From positions 3,617 to 67,616 of the IMG/VR virus record IMGVR_UViG_3300020147_000065: a stretch of 64,000 nt of DNA; one strand, given 5' to 3'. Below are positions 4,163 through 63,845 of this stretch, in pieces. Position numbers and translations under genes: made by a program. A model generated the notes under the pieces. That model was not told the DNA's origin, made no database searches, and saw only the letters and a list, made by a program, of their open reading frames with translations. Origin of the DNA: a virus. How positions within the stretch are numbered: position 1 is the first letter of the stretch; each line of letters begins with the position of its first letter.

Positions 4163-4630
4163 ATGGCGAGACAACTATATCTGGTCTGTGACCAATGCAA
4201 ACGAAAGAGCCTGGAATTTCAAGCGATCAACTGGATCGAGACGCGTTTAGCGGGGATTAATGCTATTACCACTGATATGGCACCCGTGGATGGTTTGTTC
4301 TGTAGTAGTGATTGTGTTGTGCGTTATTTTATCGCCAACCACGGGGCTAAGGCTACGAACCCATTCGATGACGAAGACGGTATCACAGAAGTTGAAAAGG
4401 AAAAGGCCGCTACGCGTGAGGCTGCGCGGCCTAACCCTGTATTCGGCCCATTATTAAAGGTTGAGCATGGGGTAGCTTCTACTTCTGATGTTCCTCCCGA
4501 ACTACAGAAGCGTTACAATGCTGACGGTACCCCAGCCGAAACAGGAGCAGGTTATGCTTTCCCATCCGGTGGTAAGCCAACGGGCGCTAACCTCGATAAA
4601 CAACTCAATCCAAAGGACTGGTTAGAATGA
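4163..4630 (+). CDS. Small Zn-finger protein (CxxC...W...FCSxxC)
   Basis: CDQC and FCSSDC motifs. Confidence 0.7.
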   Translation: MARQLYLVCDQCKRKSLEFQAINWIETRLAGINAITTDMAPVDGLFCSSDCVVRYFIANHGAKATNPFDDEDGITEVEKEKAATREAARPNPVFGPLLKVEHGVASTSDVPPELQKRYNADGTPAETGAGYAFPSGGKPTGANLDKQLNPKDWLE

Positions 4631-4833
4631 GTGAGCTAAGCGAATCCGCGCAATATAAATTGGGCCGGCATCATGCTTTAATTAAATCGGCCCCACGTTC
4701 TGCTAACAAAAGTTACATGGAGGGCTACAATAGTGTCCCTGTTTACGTAGCCCCACCATTCAAACCCAAACCAATTGAACCAGACAAAGACGGGGAGTAC
4801 CCCGGACTATTTAGCCACTGGCTGGAGGATTAA
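4627..4833 (+). CDS. Hypothetical protein, paralog of 5285..5470
   Basis: GRHHAL...SYMEGY vs GRYDAL...EYLKGF; ATGA overlap with upstream gene. Confidence 0.65.
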   Translation: MSELSESAQYKLGRHHALIKSAPRSANKSYMEGYNSVPVYVAPPFKPKPIEPDKDGEYPGLFSHWLED

Positions 4834-5270
4834 TGAACGAAGATACATATCCATTGAGAGCTAAGATTATTGATACGTTTCATGGAGCTAATGGAACAAT
4901 CCACGGGAATGGACAACATCAGGTAACCCGTGACGACATGTATGCCCGGTTAAAAGAGCGGGGCTTTACTATTTACACGGTCCGCGGTTTCATGCCGCGG
5001 ACCTACGAGGTAGGCGGAACAACGGATGAAGTAACTGCGAATGTTGCCATCAAGGGAAACCTTGAGAAACAATATTTTACAGTAAACGAAGCCAGAGAAT
5101 TCCAGGCATTCGTGGCCAGTAACTATCCGCCCTACGTCTACTTCAACGATGATGGTCCCTGGACAAAATACCCATCGAGTGATACAAAGGGAGTCAACCC
5201 CTGGCACAAACAGTATGTACCGGTCACTTATATGGAAGAAGGCGTGGCCGGGGAAACCGGTCAGAAATAA
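4833..5270 (+). CDS. Hypothetical protein, paralog of 5457..5885
   Basis: MYARLKERGF..V.GF...VYF...KYPSSD vs MEERLKKEGF..VEGF...VYF...KYPSED. Confidence 0.7.
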   Translation: MNEDTYPLRAKIIDTFHGANGTIHGNGQHQVTRDDMYARLKERGFTIYTVRGFMPRTYEVGGTTDEVTANVAIKGNLEKQYFTVNEAREFQAFVASNYPPYVYFNDDGPWTKYPSSDTKGVNPWHKQYVPVTYMEEGVAGETGQK

Positions 5271-5284
5271 AAAGGAAAGATACA

Positions 5285-5470
5285 ATGGGTGAAAGTAAAG
5301 ACAGAGAGAACAAAGCAATTGATTCAGGTCGTTATGATGCTTTACAGGGTTTTATGACACCACGCAACACTGATCCCGAATACCTCAAGGGATTTCGAGA
5401 GATTCGTGATGGAGCTACAACAGCCGGAGAAGCTTTAAAGAAAGAGAGACAATCTAATGGGACAATTTGA
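5285..5470 (+). CDS. Hypothetical protein, paralog of 4627..4833
   Basis: ORF with AAGGA RBS. Confidence 0.65.
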   Translation: MGESKDRENKAIDSGRYDALQGFMTPRNTDPEYLKGFREIRDGATTAGEALKKERQSNGTI

Positions 5471-5885
5471 TGATTCGATTTTAATAAATCCAGGGATCAA
5501 CCCTTACGCTGAATATAATGGCCATCGTGTGAGATTTTCTACGATGGAAGAACGTCTCAAGAAAGAAGGCTTCTTTGTGGAAGAGGTCGAGGGGTTCACC
5601 GACGAGAACATGCAACCGCTGCCAGGTGATTCCGGTATGTGGAAGACCAAACGTAAGGTGGCTGTTGATCCGATGGCCACAGTCTATTGTGGACCCTTCA
5701 CTGAGAATACCATCGGAGCTTACGAATTCCATACGCGCAGATGGTACTGGATCGAGGTCTACTTCAGTCGTGTTGCCGACAAGTATCCCAGCGAGGATGT
5801 TGGTAACCAATCGTGGGAAGAGCCTCATGATCTAACCCTCACAGGGAAAGAAGTCCTCGTGGAAGAAACTCCCCAGGACGCGTAA
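5457..5885 (+). CDS. Hypothetical protein, paralog of 4833..5270
   Basis: ORF track; similarity to 4833..5270. Confidence 0.7.
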   Translation: MGQFDDSILINPGINPYAEYNGHRVRFSTMEERLKKEGFFVEEVEGFTDENMQPLPGDSGMWKTKRKVAVDPMATVYCGPFTENTIGAYEFHTRRWYWIEVYFSRVADKYPSEDVGNQSWEEPHDLTLTGKEVLVEETPQDA

Positions 5886-5948
5886 TTTATTGGCGAATAC
5901 GTAGTATTCCCTTGGAAGAGGGGTTGGCGGCACCATCAGGATAGGAAT

Positions 5949-6122
5949 ATGAACGAAATTGACTTTTTTATGTTCGTTGACAATCTCGATGATGTCTCTG
6001 ACTTCCTCTTTTCGAAGAAATTATGGAAGAGGGCGCGGCGGCGTAAGCAGGATAGGAATAGGGATAAGTTATACATACATAGGGATAACTCGCCATCCGC
6101 GGGTGATAAAATCCAAAATTAA
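5949..6122 (+). CDS. Small hypothetical protein (57 aa, MNEIDFFMFVDNLDD...)
   Basis: Manually translated; AGGA upstream; below the ORF-track cut-off. Confidence 0.45.
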   Translation: MNEIDFFMFVDNLDDVSDFLFSKKLWKRARRRKQDRNRDKLYIHRDNSPSAGDKIQN

Positions 6123-6239
6123 TGTCGGAAATATCCTATTATGTCGGAAATAGGCGAAACCCAGTTTTCGAACCTCTCCCTATTAATAAGGAATTACTTC
6201 TCACCGGCAGCAGTAGGTCAACAGACCGAATGCTGCCTC

Positions 6240-6268
6240 TTGACAGATACATCTACATGCAGTATAAT
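6240..6268 (+). promoter_or_regulatory. sigma70 consensus promoter
   Basis: TTGACA-N17-TATAAT. Confidence 0.85.
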
Positions 6269-6298
6269 TATCCATGACGATGATTTAAGGATAGAATT

Positions 6299-6484
6299 AT
6301 GTTCGCTGTAGACTTACATCTGGACGAGGAGGGTTTCCCTTATGTCGGTACTTTTGATCTTGACCCCGATCTCATTTACTGGCACGAGGTTCTCCCGAAC
6401 GATTTCATGCGCGTTCGGCTTTCAGGAGCCGAACGTACCCTCGTGTTAAAGCATGATTCTTTATGGAAGAGATATTTTAAATGA
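6299..6484 (+). CDS. Small hypothetical protein
   Basis: ORF with AAGGA RBS downstream of consensus promoter. Confidence 0.65.
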   Translation: MFAVDLHLDEEGFPYVGTFDLDPDLIYWHEVLPNDFMRVRLSGAERTLVLKHDSLWKRYFK

Positions 6485-6502
6485 AAGGGAGGGTGATTAC
6501 CC

Positions 6503-6655
6503 GTGGATAGCAGAGTAAGACGAGCCTACGTATTGTACCATGACGGACAATTCAGGATGAACTGCATGTTGAACCTCGGATTAGGTAAGCACAAGCAGTT
6601 GACTCCTCAACTCTTGTGGAAGAAGGCATGGCATGTCGCAAGATTATCTGGTTAA
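6503..6655 (+). CDS. Small hypothetical protein (50 aa, GTG start)
   Basis: GGGAGG RBS; MDSRVRRAYVLYHDG...; followed by hairpin. Confidence 0.55.
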   Translation: MDSRVRRAYVLYHDGQFRMNCMLNLGLGKHKQLTPQLLWKKAWHVARLSG

Positions 6656-6663
6656 TGGAACGT

Positions 6664-6698
6664 AACCACCGGTTATCTCGTATGAGTAGCCGGTGGTT
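6664..6698 (+). terminator. Stem-loop, probable terminator
   Basis: AACCACCGG...CCGGTGGTT inverted repeat. Confidence 0.55.
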
Positions 6699-7213: not shown

Positions 7214-7222
7214 CAAACCAAA

Positions 7223-31898: not shown

Positions 31899-32417
31899 TC
31901 AAGAATAAACATATGCGCGTAATTTTCTTTCGACTTTTTCTCTGGCTCTCCATGAACGAGACTTAACTGTTCCAATAGGTACTTGTAACTTTGCTGCCGT
32001 TTCTTCAACATCCAGATTACCTAAGTAACGTGTAACAAGTATCCGTTGTGAAACAGGACTTAGGGTATCTATTACTTCACCGGCTAAAACTCTTAACTCC
32101 GCAGACTCTACAATCTCATGTGGTAAATCATCAGCAACATCAGTACACGCTGCTATGATTTTATCCATATTCTCACGGTAACGTAGTTTACGTCTGATAA
32201 GATCGCAGCAATAATTCCTTGCTACCGCTTTTACCCATTCACGCATCTTAGTTGTTTCTGTTACTGTATGACGGTTCAACCAACAACGTAACAACACATC
32301 TTGTTCTGCGTCTTCTATGAAAGCAGGTTCATGTTTTAATATATAGCCGAGCATTAAGCGAACCACGGGTCTATAATCTGCGTAGTACGCTTCCATTTCT
32401 GTTAGCGTTTTTTGCAT
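31899..32417 (-). CDS. ECF-type RNA polymerase sigma factor
   Basis: EDAEQDVLLRCW, WVKAVARNYCCDLIRR (region 2); EETAAKLQVPIGTVKSR (region 4). Confidence 0.92.
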   Translation of the reverse strand: MQKTLTEMEAYYADYRPVVRLMLGYILKHEPAFIEDAEQDVLLRCWLNRHTVTETTKMREWVKAVARNYCCDLIRRKLRYRENMDKIIAACTDVADDLPHEIVESAELRVLAGEVIDTLSPVSQRILVTRYLGNLDVEETAAKLQVPIGTVKSRSWRAREKVERKLRAYVYS

Positions 32418-42214: not shown

Positions 42215-42419
42215 TATCTCTCCTCATTTCACCCACCGCTAAAGAAACTGCAAACCAAAAGACAACTAAGATAGTTGCACAGCTAATTACCGAACCAATC
42301 TGATTCACAACATCTTTAGTTTGTCCGTAATACACATAAAATGCGTAAGCAGAATAGATGATAGACAAACTAATCATCAAAATCGACAAAGTCGCTAATA
42401 TTTTACGTAACATTATCAT
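42207..42419 (-). CDS. Small two-TM membrane protein
   Basis: Hydrophobic segments. Confidence 0.6.
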   Translation of the reverse strand: MIMLRKILATLSILMISLSIIYSAYAFYVYYGQTKDVVNQIGSVISCATILVVFWFAVSLAVGEMRRDNE

Positions 42420-42895
42420 CCTTTCTGTAACTCAAACAAGTCAACTATCTCTTGCACCTTTTCTAAAGTTAAACCTTGTTGGGGATCAGTCCTGACAAGA
42501 TTGGTAACTTTACCACCTAATTGTTCATCCGACATATCATCAACTACAACGAATTGATTGATATGTTTATGTTCAATGTAGGTTTTGATTTGTTTATCTC
42601 GTCCAGCAAGTGCTTCATCAGAACACGTATGACCGATTAGCTTACCACGGGCATTGGCTCCCGCAATCAAAAGAATATATTCAAATCCTTTAAGGCTGAC
42701 ATCGCAGCCGAGAATCATATATCTCCATGCAGAGCTAAGGACAATTCGCATTTCAGGGATTTTCTCGAAAAGCACATTGAGATTTTCTATGCAGTCTTGT
42801 CTTAATCCACAGTAACCATTCGGCCACCTTTCGTGACCATTTAGAACGCCGTCGCAGTCGAGAAACAGGATAGGTATGTTCGTCAGTCTTTGCAT
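42416..42895 (-). CDS. HAD-family phosphatase (HAD_SAK_2-like)
   Basis: LFLDCDGVLN, IVLSSAWR, FVVVDD, TDPQQGLT. Confidence 0.88.
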   Translation of the reverse strand: MQRLTNIPILFLDCDGVLNGHERWPNGYCGLRQDCIENLNVLFEKIPEMRIVLSSAWRYMILGCDVSLKGFEYILLIAGANARGKLIGHTCSDEALAGRDKQIKTYIEHKHINQFVVVDDMSDEQLGGKVTNLVRTDPQQGLTLEKVQEIVDLFELQKG

Positions 42896-43044
42896 TTTTT
42901 CGTACCTTATAAGGGAAATGACATTCTTCCCATTCTTTAATTGTTGGTGGTGGACACGGCATCAGGATACCACCTTAATTAACCATGTGGCTAATAAAAA
43001 ACCAAGAATCAAACCACCAAGGAAAGCGCAGAAAACTATTCCTG

Positions 43045-43668
43045 TCAAGTTGGCCACCAACCCATGAAAATAATACCAATTTCCGCGTCTGACTCCAGTA
43101 AATTCTTGCGGACTCGATTGATTATCGGACAACCATAATTTTCAAGTTTAGGATCGAAGTGTGGGGTGTAAATATCGAGTCCGGTTATGATAACCCCAGG
43201 TTGAAGCATATCAAAGGCTTCAAGTAGATTATCACCAAAAACTTTAGTGTGTAACCGAGCACCATCAATATTCCAGGTGTCACGCATGATCTGATAGTCA
43301 ACAATTTTACCATATTCATCGTGGATTTCTCGTAAATCCTGCTGATGCTCTGGATTCATTTCTGAGAAGAAATATTTTGTACCATTAATATCTATTACTA
43401 ATGGAAACTGTTGATTAGCTAAACCTTTTACGGGATTATGGCGAGGAGATAGTTTATCAGGAATTATTTGTGGAGGTTGAGTGACCTCTGATACTTCTTC
43501 AATGTCATCTTCCAATTCCCATTCATCATCAGATAAATCTAATTCCTCTACCTCTTCAACAGAGGGAAGAGGCTTCAAAGCCTCTTCCGCATCGCTTATT
43601 TTAGCCGCCACTAAAGTAGCAGGAATAATCCCAAAAAGTCGTAAGAATCCACGTCTATTGATATTCAT
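43045..43668 (-). CDS. Twin-arginine signal protein, acidic linker, unknown domain
   Basis: MNINRRGFLRLFGIIPATLVAAK. Confidence 0.7.
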   Translation of the reverse strand: MNINRRGFLRLFGIIPATLVAAKISDAEEALKPLPSVEEVEELDLSDDEWELEDDIEEVSEVTQPPQIIPDKLSPRHNPVKGLANQQFPLVIDINGTKYFFSEMNPEHQQDLREIHDEYGKIVDYQIMRDTWNIDGARLHTKVFGDNLLEAFDMLQPGVIITGLDIYTPHFDPKLENYGCPIINRVRKNLLESDAEIGIIFMGWWPT

Positions 43669-44126
43669 TATGGTCCCTGTAAAATTGGCGTTGGGTCATT
43701 CAATGCACTTACCGAATAAGTAAACATGTCATTATGGCCCTTCGCGTGTTCGATTGCCATTGGGATCAACCATTTGAGGTTGGGAACGGTTGGTTCTTTC
43801 TCTAAATTGGAAACTTCGATGAATGTAATCTTTTCATCGGTTAACGTCTCAAATTTATTCCAATCCTCTCTGACAACATAAAAGAAATATAATTCGGTTC
43901 CATGAGGAAAGTCTAATTTCATCAAGGGTTTCCATTCATCCCAGGGAATATTTAAACCACATTCCTCACGAACCTCTCTGGCTACGGCATCAACAGCAAA
44001 CTCGAAAGGTTCAATCTTGCCACCAATCCCATTTAATAAACCGGCTTGCCACGCCGGGCGATTCTTCTCCACCAGAGTTACTGCCTGTAATTCTGGTGAG
44101 AAGATAAATCCTACAACATACCGCAT
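43668..44126 (-). CDS. Nudix hydrolase
   Basis: NGIGGKIEPFEFAVDAVAREVREECGL Nudix box. Confidence 0.92.
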   Translation of the reverse strand: MRYVVGFIFSPELQAVTLVEKNRPAWQAGLLNGIGGKIEPFEFAVDAVAREVREECGLNIPWDEWKPLMKLDFPHGTELYFFYVVREDWNKFETLTDEKITFIEVSNLEKEPTVPNLKWLIPMAIEHAKGHNDMFTYSVSALNDPTPILQGP

Positions 44127-44881
44127 AAATCCTCCTTCATTGCTACCTGATAACGAGCCTTATTGATGAACGGAGTATAAGCACTCAATAAAATGTTGTT
44201 AGCCAATTCATCATCAAACTTACGATCCATAAATTGAGATTCTTTAAATGCTTCATCAAACTTCTCGTAAGCATTTTCCATCATTGTTTTTACTTCTTCT
44301 GGTTTAAAAGTAAGAGGGTTACACTTTAAATTCCAACAGATGTTCATGTGTCTCTTTGGTTTAACTGTGAATACCCCCGTGGTTAGCAGGTTAATAGCAG
44401 ATTCCGAAAGTCGCATGACGTGATAAGCTGGTTTGTTAGCATATCCATATTTTGAAATCATTTCTGCTCTTGCTTTACCTTCTTCGGCTTTTCCACTCGC
44501 GTTAAAAACAGCCTGGATTTGATTTCTTAGATAACCATCAAACCCACCAGCAACCTTTCTAACATCTGTCAACCTTTCCCGATTGCGACGAACGACATCG
44601 AATAACGGTGTTGTTACCTCAAAAGCATCGTCCGGTGCCCATAGTGCTTCGAGAGCAGGTGTTGCTCCACCTTTTATTTTGGTAAGAAACTCACGAAGTT
44701 CAGAGTAATCTACATCCACCTCGCTGTTTTGCTTAACAAGATGTTTGTTTTGAGTATGTTCTATACCAAGTATTTTTGAAATTTCAGTATTGAGAAAAAC
44801 ACCACGTTCATCAATATCTGACTCAGGAGTAGCAAGACCATATAAATAGCTACCCCCTCGAAATTTAGCCAAGATAATCAT
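44111..44881 (-). CDS. Pol-beta superfamily nucleotidyltransferase (RlaP/YcgL-like)
   Basis: GGSYLYGLATPESDIDERGVF; K.AYHVMRL. Confidence 0.88.
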   Translation of the reverse strand: MIILAKFRGGSYLYGLATPESDIDERGVFLNTEISKILGIEHTQNKHLVKQNSEVDVDYSELREFLTKIKGGATPALEALWAPDDAFEVTTPLFDVVRRNRERLTDVRKVAGGFDGYLRNQIQAVFNASGKAEEGKARAEMISKYGYANKPAYHVMRLSESAINLLTTGVFTVKPKRHMNICWNLKCNPLTFKPEEVKTMMENAYEKFDEAFKESQFMDRKFDDELANNILLSAYTPFINKARYQVAMKEDLCGML

Positions 44882-45311
44882 TATTAATCTTCTCCCTTAT
44901 TTTCTTCTTATTGATACTCCATCCGTGTGCATCAAGATAATCAAGAGCAAGAGTAACATCAAGAACTCGTAAAAAATTGGCAGTAAATAGATACCACACA
45001 AGACCGAATACCACAGTGGTTTGAAACAATTCATTTCCACTGTGGCATCCTATCATATCAGCAGCTTGAAGTAAATGAATGACTCCAAACGCCAAAAACA
45101 ACCATATAAACATGAAGAATGGAAATGTATTTTCATCACACATTCCAACCCACGGTTTAAAGCAACGAGCCTGAATATATGTTAGCCAGGAAGACTTGTC
45201 AATTTTATTCCTTGCTGACTCAAGCGACTTAACCATCAACTTCTCACGATTAGAGCAACCTACTTTCCTACCCAATAAGGCGCTCATACCGCTATGTGGA
45301 ACGTAACGCAT
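44865..45311 (-). CDS. Membrane protein
   Basis: Two TM segments. Confidence 0.6.
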   Translation of the reverse strand: MRYVPHSGMSALLGRKVGCSNREKLMVKSLESARNKIDKSSWLTYIQARCFKPWVGMCDENTFPFFMFIWLFLAFGVIHLLQAADMIGCHSGNELFQTTVVFGLVWYLFTANFLRVLDVTLALDYLDAHGWSINKKKIREKINNDYLG

Positions 45312-45375
45312 GTCGTCCCCCCGTTTACTTCAATTTGCTTATATGACTATTTTGGTTTAGTAGCGTTCGACATCA

Positions 45376-46287
45376 TTACAAATCAGTATCGTCTGGTCGC
45401 TCCAAAGCTTCGCCAACTACTAACACTCCAGCAAAACCTTTTTCCTCGCACCATTGCTCAACCCTTGGCCATGTTGGTTGGTCGGCTCCTACTGGGCCGA
45501 CCAGTTTAGCAAGTTGCATATCTGAATAATGGTAAAGATACATTCGGCGCTTTACTTCGGCAGGGAGAGAACATAACTCCTCAACCGAAGCATGAACCAA
45601 ACCCTTACCTTCAAACTGGCAATCGTGTAGGATAACGATGTTTTGTTCAGAAGCAAAAGCGACAATTAACGCCGGATCGAATTGAGTATCTCCACTGATG
45701 AACAATTCCTCATTCACTAAGAGTCCAGAAGACCACATATAATACTGAGACATTTTAGCCAAACCACGGGGTGGTGGTCCACCTGGTGTATGCTTGGTCT
45801 GAAATGCAAGAAGTTTAAACCCTTCCCATTCAATTCCGTAACATTCACGATAACTGGTAGGGTCACATTCCTGTCGCTCCATTCTAATTATCTCAGCGTA
45901 ATCATCCAGATTGAGATAAGGAAATTCTGCTTTGTAAAGACCACCCTTCAAAGTTTCTTCCCAGAGAGGAGTAAGAATTGGTTCAGGAGCGAGAAGCTTG
46001 ACACGCTTCTTCGCCATATAACGGGCAGCAAACAATACCTCACCAAAGCCATAGCAGTGGTCAGGATGTGTATGTGTAATGTAATATGCATCGAAATCAG
46101 CGATGTTGATTCCATCGGACTTCAGCGCGTCAGGAACATTGGCACCACAATCCACCAGAATTGTCTTACCGTGGTAAGCCAGGATAAAACTGCTGTTGGT
46201 CTGAGACGCGAACGCACTGCCGACGCCCACCGGAGTCACGATGAGTCGGTCTTCGCTATCAATGCGAATCTGCTCTAAAGTATTCAT
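45376..46287 (-). CDS. MBL-fold metallo-hydrolase, Apyc1 (anti-Pycsar)-like
   Basis: GVGSAF, LVDCG, ITHTHPDH, LWEETLKGGL, SGDTQFD, HDCQ...VHAS.EEL..LP...MYLYHYSD. Confidence 0.8.
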   Translation of the reverse strand: MNTLEQIRIDSEDRLIVTPVGVGSAFASQTNSSFILAYHGKTILVDCGANVPDALKSDGINIADFDAYYITHTHPDHCYGFGEVLFAARYMAKKRVKLLAPEPILTPLWEETLKGGLYKAEFPYLNLDDYAEIIRMERQECDPTSYRECYGIEWEGFKLLAFQTKHTPGGPPPRGLAKMSQYYMWSSGLLVNEELFISGDTQFDPALIVAFASEQNIVILHDCQFEGKGLVHASVEELCSLPAEVKRRMYLYHYSDMQLAKLVGPVGADQPTWPRVEQWCEEKGFAGVLVVGEALERPDDTDL

Positions 46288-46297
46288 CTTGGTTGTA

Positions 46298-46326
46298 ATT
46301 ATACACGAACCCAAGAGGTATGTCAA
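46298..46326 (-). promoter_or_regulatory. sigma70 consensus promoter
   Basis: TTGACA-N17-TATAAT. Confidence 0.85.
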
Positions 46327-46329
46327 GAC

Positions 46330-46908
46330 ATGGAGAAAAGAATTCCTGAAGTCTCTGATGCAAGAGCACATTGTCCCAATCCGGGGGCATGGAATTGTTA
46401 TGATGGTATGTCTTCGGAAATCGAAGTCATTGATTTTTTAGGCGCTCTAACACGCTTAATCAAACCCCAGCTTATCGTTGAAACCGGCACTTTTCATGGG
46501 AGAAGTACACTCTCTATGGCAATGGCACTTAGAGAAAACGGATTCGGAAGGCTCTACTCGCTTGATGTTGATCCAGAAAGCATTAAAATTGCCTCAGAAA
46601 GATGTCAAGATTATCCCGAAGCTGAAATTTTACAGCGTTCATCGCTCGATTATGAACCAGTTGGAAAAATTAATCTTCTTTTTTGTGACAGTGAATTACA
46701 TCTGAGAGCAACAGAGATACTACATTTTCTCCCGTGGATGGATGAAAGAAGTATCATAGCTGTGCATGACACAGGTAATCATCGCCCAAGACCACTCAAC
46801 GATCTTGAAAAGCTAAGAAACGATGGTGTTGCTAACCTGATTCACTTCGACACACCTCGTGGCTTATCTCTTTTACAACTAAGACCGGGTTACGGAGGAA
46901 GAAAATAA
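46330..46908 (+). CDS. Class I SAM-dependent methyltransferase (Methyltransf_24-like)
   Basis: IVETGTFHGRST, SLDVD, LLFCDS, IIAVHDT. Confidence 0.85.
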   Translation: MEKRIPEVSDARAHCPNPGAWNCYDGMSSEIEVIDFLGALTRLIKPQLIVETGTFHGRSTLSMAMALRENGFGRLYSLDVDPESIKIASERCQDYPEAEILQRSSLDYEPVGKINLLFCDSELHLRATEILHFLPWMDERSIIAVHDTGNHRPRPLNDLEKLRNDGVANLIHFDTPRGLSLLQLRPGYGGRK

Positions 46909-49064: not shown

Positions 49065-49349
49065 ATGAAACTGAAAGTTTGGCAACCAATTGACCTTGAA
49101 GTAAACTGCACACCTGAAGAATTTGTTGATCTCATTGCTGAGATTAGAGATCAATGGGATATTGGACCAGAAGAACCAATTTCTTTCTCTGATGTTCTTA
49201 CTTATGGAGCAAAACTTGGCTATGTTACTAATTGTCCACCGGGTTTCTTCATAATGGACAAAGAATTTAAAGGTGTAGCCACAGAGGAAGAGTTGATTGA
49301 GGCCCACGCACTTGATAGGCTCGTGGGAGGTAATCTGCGGCTATGCTAA
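49065..49349 (+). CDS. Hypothetical protein
   Basis: ORF track 49047..49349; likely start MKLKVW. Confidence 0.55.
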   Translation: MKLKVWQPIDLEVNCTPEEFVDLIAEIRDQWDIGPEEPISFSDVLTYGAKLGYVTNCPPGFFIMDKEFKGVATEEELIEAHALDRLVGGNLRLC

Positions 49350-50914
49350 AAGGCACCGAATACGTTGGAATTACAGAAAGAAAATGGGGCGAGGTAGCGC
49401 AAGCATACCTCGCCTCTATTGTTGAATCCTCCAGTGATGCCATCTTTTCTACATCAAAAGATGGGGTAATTACCACATGGAATGCTGCCGCACAGCAAAT
49501 TTTTGGTTATAGTAACCATGAAATTTTAGGTTATCCTGTATCATCCATCATTCCAGAGGGTCATCATATTAATCTGGAAGACATTTACGGTGAAATAGTC
49601 AATGAAAACAAATCTGTAAGTTATGAATCCTTCATAATGCACAAAAACAAAACTCTTGTGCCAGTATGGATAACTCTATCACCAATACGTGATGTTCACG
49701 GTAGTATAATTGGTGTCTCTGGTATTGTTCGTGATATGAGCCATCAAAAGAAACTGGAATCAGCTATCGCGGCTATTCACAGAACCTTTCAACTGGCTCT
49801 ATCGGCTTCACCTGACGCTATTTTAATTACAAATCAAGATGGCTGCATCACATACTGGAATGATGGTGCTGCTAATCTATTTGGTTACCAAGAAAAGGAT
49901 ATTCTTGGCCGACCTGTGAGCCAACTATTACCAAAAGAAACCGCAAGTAAATATGAAGGATGTATCAATAAGATGCTTGATAGCGGCTTCCCTGATGGAA
50001 GCCGCAAAATGGTTGAGATAACGGCCAAAAAGAAAGATGATACATTCTTTCCGGCTGAGGCTTCAATAGCTGTTCTTGATACTGAGTACGGTAGGCTTTG
50101 CTGTGCAATTATTCGTGATATAACAGATCGCTTGAGACAGGAAGAAAAGCTTGTTAAGACTAACGAGGAGATGCAAACCAACTTAATTCTTGCCCGAAAG
50201 GTTCAAGAAGCATTGCTTCCATCCGCCGAAGTTAAACATGAACGTTTTAAATCTTTGACAGTAGCATCAAAATATATTCCTGCTTCCGACCTTGGAGGGG
50301 ATTTCTTTGTTTGCCTACCAGTTAAACAAGACACCTTAGGTATCTTTGTTGGTGATGTAATGGGTCACGGAGTTCGTTCTGCCCTTCTTACTTCAATGCT
50401 TTATGCTCTTGTTGAAGAACTTAGTCCAGAAGAAAAAGACCCTTCAATTTTCATGACTCACCTTAATCGTAGCTTCACTCATATCATGGAGAAGACCAGT
50501 TGTAATATCTTTGCGTCTGGAGTATATGCTCAATTAAATACTACAAACAATATTGCCACAGTAGTAAGTGCTGGGCATCCTGCGCCGGTAAGGGTTTCAA
50601 AAGATGGTAAGGCTGTCTTCCTACGACCATCAGATAATTCTCCTGCTCTCGGTTTAATTAATGATTGGGTATATGGTGGATTATCTATAAATTATGAACC
50701 TGGTGATAAATTTGTCTTTTACACAGACGGATTAACCGAAGTTGATCCCTCCCGTGGTAAGATTCTCCCTGATGTTGGTTTATTGGAGTTAATCTCGACC
50801 AATGCTAACTTAAAAGCATCTGCATTACTCGAAAGATTACTGGAAGTCTCCAACAAAATGTCTTCTAATGATGAGAGACACGATGATATTTGCCTTCTGG
50901 CTGTAGAAACTTAG
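49343..50914 (+). CDS. PAS-PAS-SpoIIE (PP2C) phosphatase, RsbP/RsbU-like
   Basis: Two PAS/PAC domains (WNAAAQQIFGY..E; WNDGAANLFGY; RDITDR); ARKVQEALLP, GGDFF, GDVMGHG, AGHP, YTDGLTE, DDICLL. Confidence 0.93.
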   Translation: MLKGTEYVGITERKWGEVAQAYLASIVESSSDAIFSTSKDGVITTWNAAAQQIFGYSNHEILGYPVSSIIPEGHHINLEDIYGEIVNENKSVSYESFIMHKNKTLVPVWITLSPIRDVHGSIIGVSGIVRDMSHQKKLESAIAAIHRTFQLALSASPDAILITNQDGCITYWNDGAANLFGYQEKDILGRPVSQLLPKETASKYEGCINKMLDSGFPDGSRKMVEITAKKKDDTFFPAEASIAVLDTEYGRLCCAIIRDITDRLRQEEKLVKTNEEMQTNLILARKVQEALLPSAEVKHERFKSLTVASKYIPASDLGGDFFVCLPVKQDTLGIFVGDVMGHGVRSALLTSMLYALVEELSPEEKDPSIFMTHLNRSFTHIMEKTSCNIFASGVYAQLNTTNNIATVVSAGHPAPVRVSKDGKAVFLRPSDNSPALGLINDWVYGGLSINYEPGDKFVFYTDGLTEVDPSRGKILPDVGLLELISTNANLKASALLERLLEVSNKMSSNDERHDDICLLAVET

Positions 50915-50988: not shown

Positions 50989-52140
50989 ATGAAACGCACA
51001 AACATCTACCTTTCAGACGACCAAAACCGCGAATTAGAAATTCTTGCGAAAGCAGGAGTCTCTTCTGCGGAACATGTCCGCCGCGCGGTGGATGCTTATC
51101 TGCAAAGGCCACACATCAGGAGACAATTAGAAATGTCAACAACAGGCGCAACGCGCACCATCCCGTCCCGTCAATCGGCTCAATTAGGCCCACTGACCGT
51201 TGTTTTCCATCGTACCATTCGTGTACCACAGGGAAACACTCCGTCCTCTTTACCACCAAGTCGTGGTACTTTTCCTGTCTACAAGGTTTCTGATCTGGGT
51301 TCACTTGCTCTTCCACAGTGGGATCGTGAAGGTTACGTGATTCCTATCAAGGAAACCGAAGCAATGTGGATGGCATTCTCATGTGCATGGGACAAGCAAC
51401 CCGTTGCTGTCGCCATCGGTGCTGGTGGAATCAACGCTGTCTCTGGTGAGAAGATGAGCAGGAAGCTTCAAGAGGATGGATATTTAGTAACTCCACCTCA
51501 ACCCTGGCTTGATGGGTTTAAGTCACCAGATGGTCATGTTTATCAGTTTGTGGGAACAGAACATAAGGGCGGCGAAGGTCATACCGTAGCCGAACAGATT
51601 ATCGGTGAAGAGTCGGTTTCTGGCGGTCTTGCTTTCTCTGTTTATGAAGCAAAGGAGGGCGCCATTGTTGTTCCCAAACCCTCAACACATCTTGAATGCT
51701 TTACTATGTCTATGGATAGTGACATTAAAAGTTTCTCTCCGGCAGCAGCATCTTTATCTTCGTCTCCAAGACGTATGAGAATGATGCGTGGTAATGAATA
51801 CAGTCAACCAGACGTTCAGAAATGTGCAACGCGTGGGCCTGTGGAAATGGGTCTTGGACGTGGTGGAGCTATCGAACAGAAGGTTTATCCTGATCCTCAC
51901 GGATTATCCGCGTGGAAGGCCGAACCATCTGCTGTTGCTGTAGTATATCTTATTAGTGAACGTGAGTTTAATGCTCTTCTTGGGCTACCCACGGGTGACG
52001 TTGCTTCTACAGACAATACTTCTGGACCATACTTCAAAACTCAGGATAAACATCTTGCCGACACAGAAGGCAGCGAGAAATTCGAGAAAGTCAAAGCTGT
52101 TCCAGTCGGTGCGAAAGCTAAGCTCTTTCCGGGTGACTAA
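50989..52140 (+). CDS. Ribbon-helix-helix domain fused to a conserved uncharacterised domain
   Basis: MKRTNIYLSDDQ..L..LA...SAEHVRRAVDAYL; then FHRTIRVP..LPP..G.FP, EAMWMAF, PPQPWLDG, EMGLG.GG.IEQKVYPD. Confidence 0.75.
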   Translation: MKRTNIYLSDDQNRELEILAKAGVSSAEHVRRAVDAYLQRPHIRRQLEMSTTGATRTIPSRQSAQLGPLTVVFHRTIRVPQGNTPSSLPPSRGTFPVYKVSDLGSLALPQWDREGYVIPIKETEAMWMAFSCAWDKQPVAVAIGAGGINAVSGEKMSRKLQEDGYLVTPPQPWLDGFKSPDGHVYQFVGTEHKGGEGHTVAEQIIGEESVSGGLAFSVYEAKEGAIVVPKPSTHLECFTMSMDSDIKSFSPAAASLSSSPRRMRMMRGNEYSQPDVQKCATRGPVEMGLGRGGAIEQKVYPDPHGLSAWKAEPSAVAVVYLISEREFNALLGLPTGDVASTDNTSGPYFKTQDKHLADTEGSEKFEKVKAVPVGAKAKLFPGD

Positions 52141-53454: not shown

Positions 53455-53733
53455 ATGATCGAGATTAGATTCAGAGACTACCCCGAAGATAACTTCGATT
53501 CTTTTTATGATTTCCCCACAAAAACGGAAGCCATCAGTTGGTGGAATACGTTCTTAGCTGAGAAAAAAGAATCTGGAGCAGAAGTTACTGTCTTCAAGGA
53601 GTGGCCCGAAGATGAAGATACCCTAAAGTCTTTGGGTTTAAATTCTCCCACCTTTGGTGGCGAGTTTATGAAAGGGTATTGTATAACCGGAGGAGAAAAG
53701 GCATTATGGGTGCTAATACTGTCATTACAGTAG
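53455..53733 (+). CDS. Hypothetical protein
   Basis: ORF track. Confidence 0.65.
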   Translation: MIEIRFRDYPEDNFDSFYDFPTKTEAISWWNTFLAEKKESGAEVTVFKEWPEDEDTLKSLGLNSPTFGGEFMKGYCITGGEKALWVLILSLQ

Positions 53734-55190
53734 AAGAGCGAGATAAAGAACGAGTAATATCTAACTTAGCAGTGGAAAGCGGAAGCCTCGCACTGTCAAT
53801 GATGTATGAAGAATGTGCAGATGCGGCTGTAGAAAAATTAACGCCAGAAGATTTTTATTGGCCTCATCACCAAGTTATTTTCGATGTAATTCGTGACCTA
53901 TTTAAACAGAACAGACACATTGACCACAACATCGTCTCAGATGAACTTCAAAAGCGAGGAAAATTAGAAGAAGCTAAAGGAAAAGTATATGTTTCCAACC
54001 TTGTAGACCTTGCCCCAGCTAAAGAAGCTACTGATGAATACATTAAAGCTATCCAGGGGTGGTCTTTACTCCGAGAGATTGACGAAGGTGCGCGAGAAAC
54101 ACACTCAAGGATTACACTTGGATACCTGAGTGATCCACTTGAGGCTATTAACCAGTTGGGTACAAGACTTGATAAAGCTACAACTCGTCTTCGTCGCGCT
54201 AAGGTTGAGACAGTTGCTTCTATATGTGATGAAATTCTTGGAGACATTGCTCGCGCAATGGCTACAGGAATTGACGAGTCTGGTATTCCTACCGGATTTG
54301 AAGGCTTCGATGATTTGACCGGTGGTGTGCAACCAGGTGAAAACCTTGTAGTTGCTGCCCGTACATCAGTTGGTAAAACAGCATTCGTTCTTCAGATGGC
54401 AGCACAGATTGCCATCAACCAAAAGAAACCAGCATTAATCTTCTCTCTGGAAATGCCTAAGAAGAAATTAATGTTTCGTTTGATTTGCTCTTATGCCAAA
54501 GTGAACTCACGCGATGCTCGTCGAGGTAAGATTACTCAAGAGCAATACGATAAGATGCAGGAAGCAGCTAAAATGCTTAGTGAATGCCCTCTTCTTATTG
54601 ATGATAACACATCTGCCACATTAATTGAGATGATGGCAGCTACCAAAAAATTGATTAGGGATCACGGAGAACTCGGTTGTGTTGTAATTGACAACCTCCC
54701 TTTGGTTTCTCCGACAAACCCAGGTGCAGATGGTCATGTGCAGACAGCGGAACTAAGCCGTGGACTAAACCGTTTCTGTATGGATGTAGGAGTACCGTTG
54801 GTAACGGTTACTCAGCTTAACCGAGCAACAGAAGAAAAGACGGATAAAAAACCAACTTTATCTAACATCGCCGGTTCTGACTGTGTGGCACGAGATGCGG
54901 CTACTGTGGCATTGTTATGGCGACCAGAATACTACGACGACAAGGTTGCCAAGACACAGCAACAGGAGCGTTACGTCAACGCGAAACGAGAAGAACAAAG
55001 ACAGTTGATTACGCCTCAACCTTTGGTAGTGCCTGAACAAAAAACTGTTGTAATTGTAGATAAACAACGCAATGGCCCAACGGGAACATTTAACCTGTGG
55101 TTTGATATGAACTGCTCGTATTTCTCAGACAAGCCAACAATGGAGAGTTTCAGTTACACTGACGATAAGCGCAACGACTTCTTTGACTGA
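53706..55190 (+). CDS. dnaB: Replicative DNA helicase
   Basis: N-terminal DnaB domain; GIPTGF, AARTSVGKT, FSLEM, QLNR, VDKQRNGPTG. Confidence 0.95.
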   Translation: MGANTVITVEERDKERVISNLAVESGSLALSMMYEECADAAVEKLTPEDFYWPHHQVIFDVIRDLFKQNRHIDHNIVSDELQKRGKLEEAKGKVYVSNLVDLAPAKEATDEYIKAIQGWSLLREIDEGARETHSRITLGYLSDPLEAINQLGTRLDKATTRLRRAKVETVASICDEILGDIARAMATGIDESGIPTGFEGFDDLTGGVQPGENLVVAARTSVGKTAFVLQMAAQIAINQKKPALIFSLEMPKKKLMFRLICSYAKVNSRDARRGKITQEQYDKMQEAAKMLSECPLLIDDNTSATLIEMMAATKKLIRDHGELGCVVIDNLPLVSPTNPGADGHVQTAELSRGLNRFCMDVGVPLVTVTQLNRATEEKTDKKPTLSNIAGSDCVARDAATVALLWRPEYYDDKVAKTQQQERYVNAKREEQRQLITPQPLVVPEQKTVVIVDKQRNGPTGTFNLWFDMNCSYFSDKPTMESFSYTDDKRNDFFD

Positions 55191-57777: not shown

Positions 57778-58707
57778 ATGGCATTTAATGCAACAGTGAT
57801 AGCTGACTCTATCAATCCCCGTGGTGTGCGTATGATTACGATGGAATTAACCTTTCCACGGGTTGTATTAGCCGAGTTCAACACCCACAGGGCTTTCTCT
57901 CGTAACGCTGCATCTTCCCGTGCTATCCCGGTCGAAAAGATGATTCAGCGTGTTCTCGATGATCCTTTTATTCCTGTCTTCCAGAAGAATAAAAAGGGTA
58001 TGCAATCAACCGAACCTCTCTCCGTTGAAGAGACTGTGGCCGCTACCTCTATTTGGCTACGGCAGCGCGATGATGCTGTCGCTGCGGTTAGAAAACTCAT
58101 TGGTAAATACGAGGTAAACGAACGCGGGGAACATTGGAGTAATCCATGGAAAGATGGAATCACCCTCGACGTTCATAAACAATTCGCCAACCGTCTGCTT
58201 GAGCCGTGGATGTGGACGACTGATATTGTGACGTTTACGGACGTTGCAAATTACGCTAATCTGCGCTTTTCCCCACATGCCGAGCCTTCGATGGCTCGGA
58301 TTACCGAGATGGGCCTTGAGCAGATTGCTTTATCTGTTCCAAAGAAACTTCGCAAAGGTCAATGGCATTTACCCTTGATTTTTGAGGAAGACTATGATAT
58401 GCTTAGGAAAGAGCAGATCACTTTCGACGATTTAATTAAAATTTCTGTGGGCCGATGTGCCAGAGTTTCTTACTTGACACACGATGGCCGGAGAGATTTA
58501 CAGGCAGACATTGATTTACACGACCGATTACTCGCTAACGGACATATGTCTCCATTCGAGCATCAAGGTCGTGCAATGAACTCTAAAGTGAAGCGTTCTG
58601 GAAATCTTGTTGGCTTCGAACAGTACCGTAAGATGCTTCCTAACGAAAACAGAACGTATTTCAAATGTACTCTACCAAGTGGTCGTGAATTAATTTTGGA
58701 GAGATAA
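57778..58707 (+). CDS. thyX: FAD-dependent thymidylate synthase
   Basis: AEFNTHRAFSRNAASSRAIP, HKQFANRLLEPW, RCARVSY, HMSPFEHQ. Confidence 0.92.
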   Translation: MAFNATVIADSINPRGVRMITMELTFPRVVLAEFNTHRAFSRNAASSRAIPVEKMIQRVLDDPFIPVFQKNKKGMQSTEPLSVEETVAATSIWLRQRDDAVAAVRKLIGKYEVNERGEHWSNPWKDGITLDVHKQFANRLLEPWMWTTDIVTFTDVANYANLRFSPHAEPSMARITEMGLEQIALSVPKKLRKGQWHLPLIFEEDYDMLRKEQITFDDLIKISVGRCARVSYLTHDGRRDLQADIDLHDRLLANGHMSPFEHQGRAMNSKVKRSGNLVGFEQYRKMLPNENRTYFKCTLPSGRELILER

Positions 58708-58708: not shown

Positions 58709-59422
58709 ATGCCCTATTATGAAAAGGCACCTCTGCGCTTAAAGGCAGAGCAATTTCGATTTATTGATGGACCAGACGGCGACGAAACTCGCCGTCTGGC
58801 TCAATCACTTGGACTCATACAACGATATGAGGTTTATCGTGATGGAGACTTTATTGATAACTCTTCACCTTGGGAAGTCCAGACACTTGAAGGTTGGGTT
58901 ACGGTAAACGATGGTGACTATGTTATCATTGGTATAGAGGGTGAAAAGTATCCTCGTAGCGAAGAAGATTTTCAAAAGAATTACACAAAGGTTGAGGGTG
59001 AAGAGAACTTATATGAACGTAAGCCCATATGTGTAAAAGCTTTCCAGTGGTGGAAGAATGGAGATCATCCAGAGGATGAGTCGGAGCTAATTACTGGTTC
59101 TGATGGTGAAATGTTTCTTAGTGAAGGTAAGATAGTCAGACGATTTAATCATCCTAACATTTCATCGCAAGAAAAGTGTGAAGTTTGTGATCACGTAATG
59201 GGTAATCATGGTTGGATTGATAGGGGTGAAAACGGTTTACGTGTTTGCCCAGGTGATATGATTATCCAAACTTACGGTGAAGAACCTTATCCATGCAAGC
59301 CGCGGATTTTCATAAAAACATATTACCTACTTACGTTTGAACAATTTCCGAAGCCTGTGGGAGAAGATGAAGATGAATTTGGAACAGAAGGGCCGATTAG
59401 TAGTGAAGCATCTGAGGCATGA
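58709..59422 (+). CDS. Protein with two PGDY(G)-type domains
   Basis: TLEGW..V..GDYVI.G.EGE.YP; CPGDMII....EPYPCKP.IF.KTY. Confidence 0.75.
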   Translation: MPYYEKAPLRLKAEQFRFIDGPDGDETRRLAQSLGLIQRYEVYRDGDFIDNSSPWEVQTLEGWVTVNDGDYVIIGIEGEKYPRSEEDFQKNYTKVEGEENLYERKPICVKAFQWWKNGDHPEDESELITGSDGEMFLSEGKIVRRFNHPNISSQEKCEVCDHVMGNHGWIDRGENGLRVCPGDMIIQTYGEEPYPCKPRIFIKTYYLLTFEQFPKPVGEDEDEFGTEGPISSEASEA

Positions 59423-59948
59423 CCCTCATTCTCTTGGATTTAATTCTCTTTTAACCGGTGGCTATCTCCCCGTGGATAGCTTATTAAATTCTATCTGGAA
59501 ATACAAGGGTGTACGTATAACCAGAGATGAATTAAACGAGATCGTCGAAACCAATAACAAACAACGTCTTTCCTATGATACAACTGGTACTCTAATCAGA
59601 GCAAACCAGGGGCACAGTATTCCTGTGGACTTGCAGTTGACTCCTGAGACTCCACCGGCTGTACTATATCATGGTACAGATGAAAAATATGTTGACTCAA
59701 TTAATGAGACTGGTATATACAAGAGTTCTCGTCATGCCGTTCATTTATCCGAAGATGTACATACCGCAGGTAAAGTAGGCGCTCGTCACAGCGGAAACCC
59801 ATATGTTCTTGGGGTAGATGCCGAGCAAATGTATAAAGACGGATACTTGTTCTACAAATCAGAAAATGGCGTGTGGCTTACTGATTTTGTGCCACAGGGA
59901 TATTTACTAAGAGAGGAACATGGATATGAACCGATTCGATTTTATTGA
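59373..59948 (+). CDS. kptA: RNA 2'-phosphotransferase (Tpt1/KptA)
   Basis: LRHDP, NNKQRL, IRANQGHS, LYHGT, RHAVHLS, SENGVWLTDFVP. Confidence 0.92.
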   Translation: MNLEQKGRLVVKHLRHDPHSLGFNSLLTGGYLPVDSLLNSIWKYKGVRITRDELNEIVETNNKQRLSYDTTGTLIRANQGHSIPVDLQLTPETPPAVLYHGTDEKYVDSINETGIYKSSRHAVHLSEDVHTAGKVGARHSGNPYVLGVDAEQMYKDGYLFYKSENGVWLTDFVPQGYLLREEHGYEPIRFY

Positions 59949-61331: not shown

Positions 61332-61352
61332 TTTCCCTGGTGATCGAAACAT

Positions 61353-61955
61353 ATGAATAGAAACAGACCGAACTACGCGCTACTCGGATGCGGTGGAGTA
61401 GCAACCCTTGGCCTTGTGGCCATCCTGATCTTTGCTCTCTCCGCCATCGGGGTTAGCAATAGCGAAAAGCAGTTGCGAAATACAATTGTCGCTAAACAAG
61501 AAGTTCTTCGTTCGAACTACGACAAGATGTGGAAAATTCTGGCTCAACAGGCCGGAGTATCTGCTGAATACAAGAACTCCTTCAAAGAGATTTACCCGGC
61601 CTTAATGGAAGGCCGATATGGAAATGCTCGTGGTGGTGCTCTAATGTCATGGGTTCACGAACATAACCCTGAGTTCTCTCCCCGACTTTTCGAGCAACTT
61701 AACAACTCGATTCAGGATCAAAGAACCGAATACTTCAAGCAGGAAGAAGCTGCCCTCGACCTAAAACGTGAACACGACAACATGATTGATACTTTTCCAA
61801 GTAGCTTGATTCTAAGTATTCTTGGTAGAGATAAGATTAAACTCCAACTTGTTCGTTCTGAGCGTACAGATAATGCTTTTGAAACTGGACAAGATAATGA
61901 GGTAAATCTATTCCCGACTGCGCAGCCACAAAAGGCGCCCGTAAAGGTAAAATAA
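61353..61955 (+). CDS. LemA-like membrane-anchored protein
   Basis: N-terminal TM, coiled coil, C-terminal H...IDTFPS.LI. Confidence 0.7.
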   Translation: MNRNRPNYALLGCGGVATLGLVAILIFALSAIGVSNSEKQLRNTIVAKQEVLRSNYDKMWKILAQQAGVSAEYKNSFKEIYPALMEGRYGNARGGALMSWVHEHNPEFSPRLFEQLNNSIQDQRTEYFKQEEAALDLKREHDNMIDTFPSSLILSILGRDKIKLQLVRSERTDNAFETGQDNEVNLFPTAQPQKAPVKVK

Positions 61956-62326
61956 TGTCCGTAGAAGTAATCGAAGATAAATTTTCTGGAGTCGCAAATG
62001 ACTTCTTAATTGGTTTTACTGAGATGCAAGAGGCGGTTTACAAAACCGCCGTCGAGCATGGTTGGTGGGATGATGAGCGCAATAACGGAGAATTAATCGC
62101 TCTTATGCACTCTGAACTGTCAGAGGGTCTTGACTCTTTGCGACATGGCGATCCTCCCAGCGATCATATTCCTGAGTTCAGTGGTCTTGAAGAAGAATTT
62201 GCTGATGTGATAATCCGAATTATGGATTATGCTCAGGCTCGTGGACTTCGTGTTGGTGAAGCTGTTCTTGCCAAAGCCAAGTTTAATGAAAGCAGACGAT
62301 ACAAACACGGAGGAAAGAAGTTCTAA
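61955..62326 (+). CDS. MazG-like NTP pyrophosphohydrolase
   Basis: LIALMHSELSEGL, EEEFADVIIRIMD, K...N..R.YKHGGK. Confidence 0.88.
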   Translation: MSVEVIEDKFSGVANDFLIGFTEMQEAVYKTAVEHGWWDDERNNGELIALMHSELSEGLDSLRHGDPPSDHIPEFSGLEEEFADVIIRIMDYAQARGLRVGEAVLAKAKFNESRRYKHGGKKF

Positions 62327-62622
62327 TGGGTGAATTTAACGAACTACTCTTTAACAATCCTGTGTTCAATAAAGGTCTAAATCTTACTGTACGCAGAGGC
62401 ATCAAATGGTCTTTACAATCTGGTGCCCATATTGAGAATGTCGGCTCAGTTTTAATTAATACTCAGGTCATGAGATTCTCTGATTTGACCGATAGAGATT
62501 TAAAATTTGAGCATGACCCAGCCTGTCGAACCGTTACAGGACTTTATCAGGTATTGCAGGATACTTATCCTGGTTTTGACCCAAGAGAAATTGTTACTCT
62601 TGTTAGTTTCGAAGTCAGATAA
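62326..62622 (+). CDS. ASCH/PUA-like small protein
   Basis: LTVRRG.KW...L...YPGF...EIVTLV.F. Confidence 0.55.
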   Translation: MGEFNELLFNNPVFNKGLNLTVRRGIKWSLQSGAHIENVGSVLINTQVMRFSDLTDRDLKFEHDPACRTVTGLYQVLQDTYPGFDPREIVTLVSFEVR

Positions 62623-62624
62623 CA

Positions 62625-62660
62625 AAGAGGGCGGCTCTTCCGAGAGTTCGCCCTCTTTTT
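62625..62660 (+). terminator. Rho-independent terminator
   Basis: AAAGAGGGCG...CGCCCTCTTTTT. Confidence 0.7.
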
Positions 62661-62675
62661 GGAAGGGTGATTTAA

Positions 62676-63845
62676 ATGTTGATTTGGGGAGCACTTATAA
62701 TTCCGATTATCTTAACGATAATCTTCGTAATTAAATGGCATAATAAAATGGCCTGGTGGGAGTACGTTATTCCAACTTTAGCAGTTCTTATGATTATCGC
62801 CGTCTTTAAAAGCGGTACAGAAAGTATGCAAGTTCAGGACACAGAGTATCATGGCTCATGGGTAGCTACAGCAACCTACGAAGAGCCTTGGGATGAGTGG
62901 ATTGAAGATACCTGCACCAAAACAGTGTCATGTGGTAAAGACTGTACGACCACTGAAACTTATGACTGTTCTTATAGAAAAGACCATCCAGCTCAGTATT
63001 ATATCGAGGAAGGTGCTGGTGGAAAAGTTCTTAACATAGACCCCGGTTATTTTAACTGGTTGTGCGAACATTTTGGTAACAAGAACTTTATTGAAATGAA
63101 TCGAGATTACTATCGAATTGATGGTAACGCTTATCAGACAATATGGGGTGGAGAGCGCAATAAACTGGTGCCTGTCTCTACAATCCATAACTATGTGAAT
63201 AGGATTCAGGCTTCAACAAGCGTATATCGCTTCCGCGAAATCCCTGAAAAAGAAGCGAAATCAAAAGGTCTTTATGAGTATCCTGGTGTAGATGCCCAAT
63301 ACCAGACCGAAAATATTCTTGGTCCGGCAGGTAATCAAAAGAATGATGCTGAGCGATACATTCAATTGTTAAATGCTACAATGGGCAGACCTAATCAGGT
63401 TCGGTTATACATTCTAATCTTTCAGGACAAACCACGGGATGTCGCTTTCGACCAACAGGCATATTGGGGTGGAGGCAACAAGAACGAGTTCGTTGTTTGC
63501 ATTGGAATTGATAAAGAGCGTAAAGTCAAATGGTGTGTACCATTCTCATGGATGGACAAACAGGGACTTACAACTAATATCCGTACCGATGTTTTACAAC
63601 AGACAGGAAAACCCCTTGACCTTTTGAAAGTAATACGACACCTTGAGGTAAGAGTACCAAAAGAGTGGGAGAGAAAGCAGTTCGCTGACTTTAACTATCT
63701 TACGGTTGAGCCTCCTCTGTGGGCAGTTATTATTACATACCTTGCCTCCATATTAGTTACCGGAGGAACTCTTTACTGGTGTCATTGCAACGACTTTGAA
63801 TGTGGTGGTCATAAAACTCCGTATCGGAGCCGTTATCGTTACTAA
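62676..63845 (+). CDS. Membrane protein with large extracytoplasmic domain (probable LemA partner)
   Basis: 2 N-terminal TM + C-terminal TM; YEEPWDEW..CT..C..YDC; W.GGNKNE. Confidence 0.7.
   Translation: MLIWGALIIPIILTIIFVIKWHNKMAWWEYVIPTLAVLMIIAVFKSGTESMQVQDTEYHGSWVATATYEEPWDEWIEDTCTKTVSCGKDCTTTETYDCSYRKDHPAQYYIEEGAGGKVLNIDPGYFNWLCEHFGNKNFIEMNRDYYRIDGNAYQTIWGGERNKLVPVSTIHNYVNRIQASTSVYRFREIPEKEAKSKGLYEYPGVDAQYQTENILGPAGNQKNDAERYIQLLNATMGRPNQVRLYILIFQDKPRDVAFDQQAYWGGGNKNEFVVCIGIDKERKVKWCVPFSWMDKQGLTTNIRTDVLQQTGKPLDLLKVIRHLEVRVPKEWERKQFADFNYLTVEPPLWAVIITYLASILVTGGTLYWCHCNDFECGGHKTPYRSRYRY

Follow-up and report, generated by a model that had tools for sequence, protein, structure and literature searches.

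Both strands of a phage genome in the IMG/VR database carry many copies of a gapped DNA word, (C)CCGTGG-W-T-R-G(C), and we consider it likely that the phage's own Prim-Pol recognizes this word on single-stranded template and starts lagging-strand (Okazaki) primers there. The word was noticed in a 64,000-nucleotide stretch of DNA (the window), bases 3617–67616 of the 221,108-base virus record IMGVR_UViG_3300020147_000065. In this window, 42 dispersed CCCGTGG sites lie between positions 4283 and 63438, 18 on the + strand and 24 on the − strand. The two ends of the record share an overlap of ~186 bases that differs at a single base. We therefore handled the genome as a circle of 220,921 bases, while the record itself is classed as linear and 89% complete. 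Our own gene-calling script gave 368 genes and 88% coding sequence, small genes being uncertain. Judging by predicted genes that include a major head protein and rIIA/rIIB, this is a large tailed phage.

A strongly selected word

The first-pass annotation of the window, made from the letters alone, listed 18 CCCGTGG and 24 CCACGGG heptamers, and every coordinate is exact. The other features it described are also present: a G four bases past the heptamer in 39 of the 42 sites, GC at that point in 24, CCCGTGGATAGC five times, and two near-variants. Its chance expectation of about 3 copies was of the right order, since a simple model at the window's 43.2% GC gives 3.7. Across the whole genome there are 137 unique sites, 62 on the + strand and 75 on the − strand, and no other non-palindromic 7-mer ranks above the word (log10 p −38). 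The enrichment persists under a codon-preserving null: 99 sites lie in genes, compared with 17.9 ± 3.9, and a maximum of 29, in 300 synonymous-codon shuffles. As the annotation had noted from the different frames used, reading frame does not matter, with enrichment in all six. Its description of the sites as embedded in coding sequence holds for the window, where 37 of 42 fall in called genes, but not for the genome, where 38 of 137 are intergenic despite the high coding density.

The proposal that the signal extends past the heptamer is borne out. In-gene sites with the additional G (CCCGTGG-NNN-G) number 91, versus 7.2 in codon-preserving shuffles, a 12.6-fold excess, whereas in-gene heptamers lacking it are at background (8 versus 10.1); the G is thus part of the word. 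Enrichment is graded by the length of the 5′ C run (DCCGTGGNNNG, 44 versus 12.7; DCGTGGNNNG, 60 versus 43; DGTGGNNNG, 215 versus 229). The gap prefers W, T and R, the commonest bases after TGG being T, T and A (62, 87 and 61 of 137), and the base after the G is mostly C. Beyond the word, the flanking sequences are unrelated among sites. Symmetry is limited to a CC-NNN-GG frame with a one-sided centre and 3′ G, unlike the palindromic sites of parS or matS type.

Together, these data support the annotation's claim that selection acts on the DNA for a sequence-specific reader. Of the roles it listed for that reader (organizing, protecting, marking, nicking or packaging the genome), none is the one that fits best, which is priming. 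A suggested likeness to a DnaA box is not supported, with ATA following the heptamer in just 12 of 128 G-bearing sites; this count and the dispersal of the sites do not match DnaA boxes of the TGTGGATAA type clustered at an origin. The proteins named as candidate readers (window positions 50989, 57120, 56573 and 28316) have no Pfam or PHROG match and no tie to the word. Searches of an open-access library found no description of the word in a phage, nor of phage genomes in which primase sites are over-represented or regularly spaced.

Spacing on each strand

Orientation was described as mixed. Both strands are indeed used, but not at random: neighboring sites alternate in strand 94 times out of 137, versus 68.4 expected (0 of 10,000 shuffles), and the runs statistic (z 4.35) ranks first of 65 common 7-mers. 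The alternation arises from repulsion between sites on the same strand. Same-strand pairs closer than 1 kb number 18, compared with 42.1 for uniform placement and 34.4 for permuted labels (0 of 3000), whereas opposite-strand pairs are near chance (51 versus 42.1). The repulsion is seen with in-gene sites alone (5 same-strand pairs within 1 kb versus 16.3) and with refined versions of the word. The depletion fades by 1.5–2 kb, and the median same-strand gap is 2.0–2.6 kb. Spacing on the − strand is clearly even (coefficient of variation [CV] 0.68). Thus, the word is real and strongly selected, with per-strand spacing, and either strand appears to require sites at intervals of a few kilobases, independent of the other strand. 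Repulsion limited to one strand fits a single-strand process with a scale of 1–1.5 kb; bacterial Okazaki fragments are 1–2 kb long.

Sites are present in every 20-kb bin of the genome. Their density is lowest in the large virion genes (L004–L005, genome 119–142 kb), with four sites in 120–140 kb, and the largest gap is 10.5 kb. Opposed pairs less than 100 bp apart occur five times in the order + then − and never in reverse, against 2.1 expected for each, a weak effect. Two of the five are in the window, at 4283..4345 (+4283, −4339) and at 57818..57862 (+57818, −57856), the latter within a ThyX-like gene. An opposed site pair also lies inside the gene of the second Prim-Pol described below.

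G is scarce on both flanks of the sites (0.151 versus 0.202 and 0.143 versus 0.207). The CCCGTGG strand is predicted to fold less (p 0.009), the opposite strand not (p 0.997).

Candidate readers

The phage genome encodes two PF09250 Prim-Pol proteins of the AEP type (Pfam, 7.6e-34 and 4.6e-21). A six-frame search for DnaG (PF08275) found none in the phage genome, with the positive control detected in 10 of 14. A DnaB-type replicative helicase, the likely partner of the primase, is encoded on the + strand at window 53706..55190 (Pfam DnaB_C 2.6e-67, DnaB 2.2e-20; phrog_19), and the phage also has a ligase (Pfam) and a DNA polymerase belonging to family B (PHROGs). Two PF09250 proteins, a helicase, a polymerase and a ligase, with no DnaG, speak for a phage Prim-Pol as the likely primer-maker.

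The likelier reader of the word is P0003, a stand-alone Prim-Pol of 333 aa with an AEP domain and a predicted C-terminal helix bundle. Its gene (+ strand, genome 67849–68850; L002:1849–2850) starts 233 bases past the end of the window (position 64000). In an alignment of 20 sequences (P0003, two database proteins, and proteins from 17 of 23 viral loci), the catalytic residues D102 and H129 are invariant and D100 is nearly so. The family profile matches pRN1 ORF904 at 9.5e-10; direct profile comparison with the NrS-1 primase is weak (probability 12.6%). An earlier structure model of P0003 was poor (pLDDT 47), and a fold search with it was empty. With the current model (pLDDT 81; helices predicted at 216–293, mostly above pLDDT 75), each of the 10 Foldseek matches with E ≤ 0.001 is to ORF904 (four) or the NrS-1 primase (six), followed at rank 11 by RSF1010 RepB′ (E 0.004). 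The second candidate is P0001, a 494-aa Prim-Pol with a winged-helix domain, for which a set of 50,697 phage records yielded no match. Its gene overlaps that of the DNA polymerase P0002 (together genome 96238–99814; L003:11238–14814), and the polymerase is 53–60% identical to those of low-GC phages.

Comparison with known priming sites

The solved relatives of P0003 are ORF904 and the NrS-1 primase, and both prime at sequences that form the core of the word. ORF904 is described as reading GTG, and NrS-1 as most efficient at GTGG and GTGA, with initiation mainly one base upstream of the site recognized (PMC8718748). The first primer base is reported to be preferably a purine (PMC10250227; PMC12205980). 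The phage word likewise has a GTG(G) core with pyrimidines on its 5′ side; copying of its C run would give a primer that begins with G, consistent with the preference for a purine. The commonest bases after the core, TTA, are also the last three of the NrS-1 8-mer TTTGGTTA (PMC8718748; PMC7102993). It is plausible, by analogy, to place the word among AEP recognition sites. The word is nonetheless longer than those of ORF904 and NrS-1, at 10–12 bases, with a 5′ C run and a required G past a 3-nt gap. It is also far more numerous, with ~130 selected copies spread out along the two strands, whereas the NrS-1 8-mer has one or two copies (two according to PMC7102993) and the NrS-1 genome shows no such pattern. 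P0003 also differs in standing alone beside a separate DnaB, with no helicase fused to it.

RSF1010 provides another precedent, in which RepB′ carries out sequence-specific priming by an AEP-like enzyme from sites on both strands, ssiA and ssiB. Those are two structured sites at an origin, whereas the phage word is short and dispersed.

A model for lagging-strand priming

From the spacing, the gene set and the relatives of P0003, we infer a reader, a template strand, a start base and a role in replication. DnaB would unwind the phage DNA, and the strand reading 5′-CCCGTGG-3′ would act as template. The helix bundle of the primase would contact GTGG together with the bases on its 3′ side, the required G among them. 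The C that directly precedes GTG would template the first base, such that the new strand begins 5′-GGG. A second site on the same strand within ~1 kb would add little, and selection would then spread the sites along each strand; both strands would carry them because forks would run either way. Priming is favored because repulsion within but not between strands fits a single-strand process. We hold only tentatively the more specific proposal, that a stand-alone AEP primase and DnaB read a gapped 10- to 12-base code and that the Okazaki map is genome-encoded, at about one site per 2–3 kb of each strand.

Several observations weigh against a priming role. Some concern the sites themselves. Spacing on the + strand is only weakly even (CV 0.84, p 0.10), weak sites were not found filling the gaps between strong ones, and the word itself shows no significant drop in pairing probability (p 0.089). 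Within sigma-70-like promoter spacers, 16 sites have one orientation and 1 has the other. Others concern the enzyme: the fold matches of P0003 have low whole-chain TM-scores (0.25–0.35), and its C-terminal part has no PriCT Pfam match (PriCT_1/2 is found in 7 of the 20 aligned sequences). The sites described for helix-bundle AEP Prim-Pols are 3–8 contiguous bases, with no gapped required base among those reviewed here. The remainder come from other phages. A dominant two-strand GTG word is missing from all 13 annotated phages that encode a related Prim-Pol, NrS-1 among them (seven were covered in part); two of these, Neville (with DnaB) and Ec-ZZ2, have a short stand-alone Prim-Pol. The NrS-1 record holds one copy of TTTGGTTA. 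Likewise, 23 viral Prim-Pol loci are without the word, nearly all of them encoding long fusion proteins or being cut off.

The word in other genomes

Because none of the 13 phages shows such a word, the Prim-Pol family alone does not predict one. Seven of the 13 were covered in part, over ~50 kb; in pieces of this genome of that size, the word ranks first in three of four. Two of the 13, Kurnik and ctLpZ231, do have strongly enriched two-strand words (AGGCAAG and CTTGAGC, respectively), with no GTG and no alternation. In NrS-1, TGTGGAC occurs 10 times versus 1.7, with nine copies on one strand, which is not clearly beyond multiple testing. Further enriched words were seen on other phages: CTGCAGC and GCTTGCA on both strands, and GTTGTGA (14 versus 2.7) in one Prim-Pol locus.

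Relatives of other phage proteins were also surveyed. Among 28 loci with relatives of the polymerase, the 23 of at least 10 kb were analyzed and the word is enriched in none; in these loci it does not travel with the polymerase. Loci with relatives of the portal protein (52, of which 37 were long enough for the shuffle test) are without the word, having at most three G-bearing sites each, and PF09250 was found in 0 of 27 of their records. The joint absence of word and Prim-Pol fits priming weakly, because the portal relatives are distant. Searches for close relatives returned little. Among viral contigs, the primase found a single distant locus and the capsid none; a genome scan with the capsid gave no relative; and in metagenomes two contigs with the capsid turned up, 1.8 and 2.2 kb long, which have 0 sites but are too short to tell. 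Pattern scans yielded 7 loci without an excess of the word and 23 that share no protein with the phage.

The best-matching read run is a soil metagenome, which may be the source of the phage; a second run gave short identical pieces only, with no variants, and no RNA data set was listed as carrying the phage. Hints to the host diverge: look-alikes of the PAS-SpoIIE protein lean toward Verrucomicrobiota, and the capsid matches mycobacteriophages at 24–26%. In 121 genomes of Acidobacteriota (the phylum of a Bryobacteraceae genome), CCCCGTGGWWRGC occurs at most 8 times each, versus 19 in the phage, and in 101 genomes of Actinomycetota (the phylum of an Acidothermaceae genome), CCCGTGGWTRG occurs at most 13 times each, versus 48. 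Six of the searched bacterial genomes are marked unpublished, and the maxima are independent of them. None of these genomes or of the portal-relative loci is known to be, or to share, the host of the phage.

Alternative explanations

A phage protein (a repressor, a nucleoid organizer or a packaging factor) might bind the word in double-stranded form, for which the winged-helix domain of P0001 and a ParB-like gene near the terminase are candidates. A gapped consensus suits such a binder, as do the 38 intergenic sites and the shared orientation of the 16 promoter-spacer sites. However, double-stranded binding gives no simple reason for repulsion on the same strand only. An operator or promoter element would be mainly intergenic and fixed in position relative to the promoter, whereas 99 of the 137 sites are in genes, in all frames. 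Of the 98 poly-C promoters described below, 11 have a site, at varying offsets from the −10 box (11–14, 19 and 20), and spacer positions ahead of the −10 box are G-rich regardless, which can explain the one-sided orientation. We read the promoter-spacer sites as use of free, G-tolerant sequence, with an operator role possible too, and regard a double-strand binder as an unlikely explanation for the word overall. We find it similarly unlikely, and if anything slightly more so, that the word is a Chi-like site of the host, gathered to tame a RecBCD/AddAB-type helicase-nuclease that enters broken DNA from either side. Per-strand spacing is compatible with such a site. E. coli Chi is described as ending in GTGG and being read on one strand, with A or G at 3′ nucleotides 4–7 modulating its activity (PMC5041463); the G of the phage word, a purine four bases 3′ of it, is nucleotide 4. 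Phages such as LLS, MD8 and P1 accumulate Chi, to as much as one per 1.9 kb (PMC12315714); location within genes and a density of about one per 1.6–1.9 kb are common to those sites and the phage word. In the same account, however, the sites of Chi-rich phages have one orientation (20:3 and 32:0) and cluster at the ends, and lambdoid Chi-rich phages have no recombination module (PMC12315714); by contrast, the word is split 62:75 and occupies all 20-kb bins, and this phage encodes its own RecA (Pfam, 7.3e-48). E. coli Chi itself is at background in the phage (8 versus 9.0), and the soil-phylum genomes and portal-relative loci surveyed above, none of them known to be or to share the host, are not enriched for the word.

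It is more doubtful still that a self mark, in the form of a modification or nick on one strand, is placed on the phage DNA at the word. The site is non-palindromic, a mark needed at intervals on each strand would also yield per-strand spacing, and the phage appears to be under heavy restriction pressure (GATATC, ATCGAT, CTGCAG and GCGCGC, 0 copies each; CTAG, 28 versus 704 expected). Yet restriction-type systems drive depletion rather than enrichment, and the Pfam scan, which covered 275 proteins with small open reading frames outside it, revealed no DNA methyltransferase catalytic domain and no word-linked nicking enzyme. Least credible, to the point of being nearly negligible, is that codon use or the copying of promoter cassettes produced the word incidentally. 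Some sites do lie in near-identical promoters, but the 12.6-fold excess over codon-preserving shuffles, the use of all six frames, the unrelated flanks, and the spacing of in-gene sites alone all contradict it.

Other features of the genome

The avoidance of palindromes extends to TCCGGA, CACGTG, CGGCCG and AGCGCT, also with 0 copies each genome-wide, and such extreme avoidance makes it likely that the host has many type II restriction systems. GC skew reveals no strand switch or origin and tracks gene direction, and the window contains no tRNA and no Rfam family.

The genome contains 98 runs of 7–11 C, at window 201–209 and 4020–4028 and mostly in L006–L008 (genome 154–195 kb). Nearly all have the form TG-C(n)-TTG..-17 nt-TA...T, in which the poly-C element lies upstream of the −35 box, and each precedes a small gene, often with a hairpin upstream. 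In 56 of the 98, ATG lies 6–7 bases past the −10 box, which suggests that these promoters drive leaderless early transcripts.

Among the predicted proteins are a probable large terminase of 890 aa (L006:4183–6855), whose internal LAGLIDADG domain is likely an intein, and an ECF-type sigma factor (window 31899–32417; Pfam). A set of RNA-repair and ADP-ribose genes (RlaP, HAD_SAK_2, Tpt1, PARP, Macro and a DUF2828 protein) is encoded alongside an Apyc1-like (anti-Pycsar) protein (window 42416–46371 and 59337–59948; L009:14682–19298; L010:8872–9447; Pfam). There are also host-type signaling genes, for a PAS-SpoIIE phosphatase, a GGDEF protein and a CHASE3 protein (window 49343–50914; L003:14814–15596; L002:5448–6098; Pfam).

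Implications

Primase sites are usually too short to mark a genome. If the word is Chi-like instead, it would represent a Chi-type signal of a soil host that has not been studied. If it is a primase site, the primase would act on phage DNA and largely pass over that of the host, and the specificity of primases could be read directly from phage genomes. The prediction would be exact to the base, with new strands beginning at the GGG of CCACGGG. The phage would then offer a candidate site-specific priming enzyme and a rare case in which selection for the spacing of Okazaki fragments can be seen at work within coding sequence.

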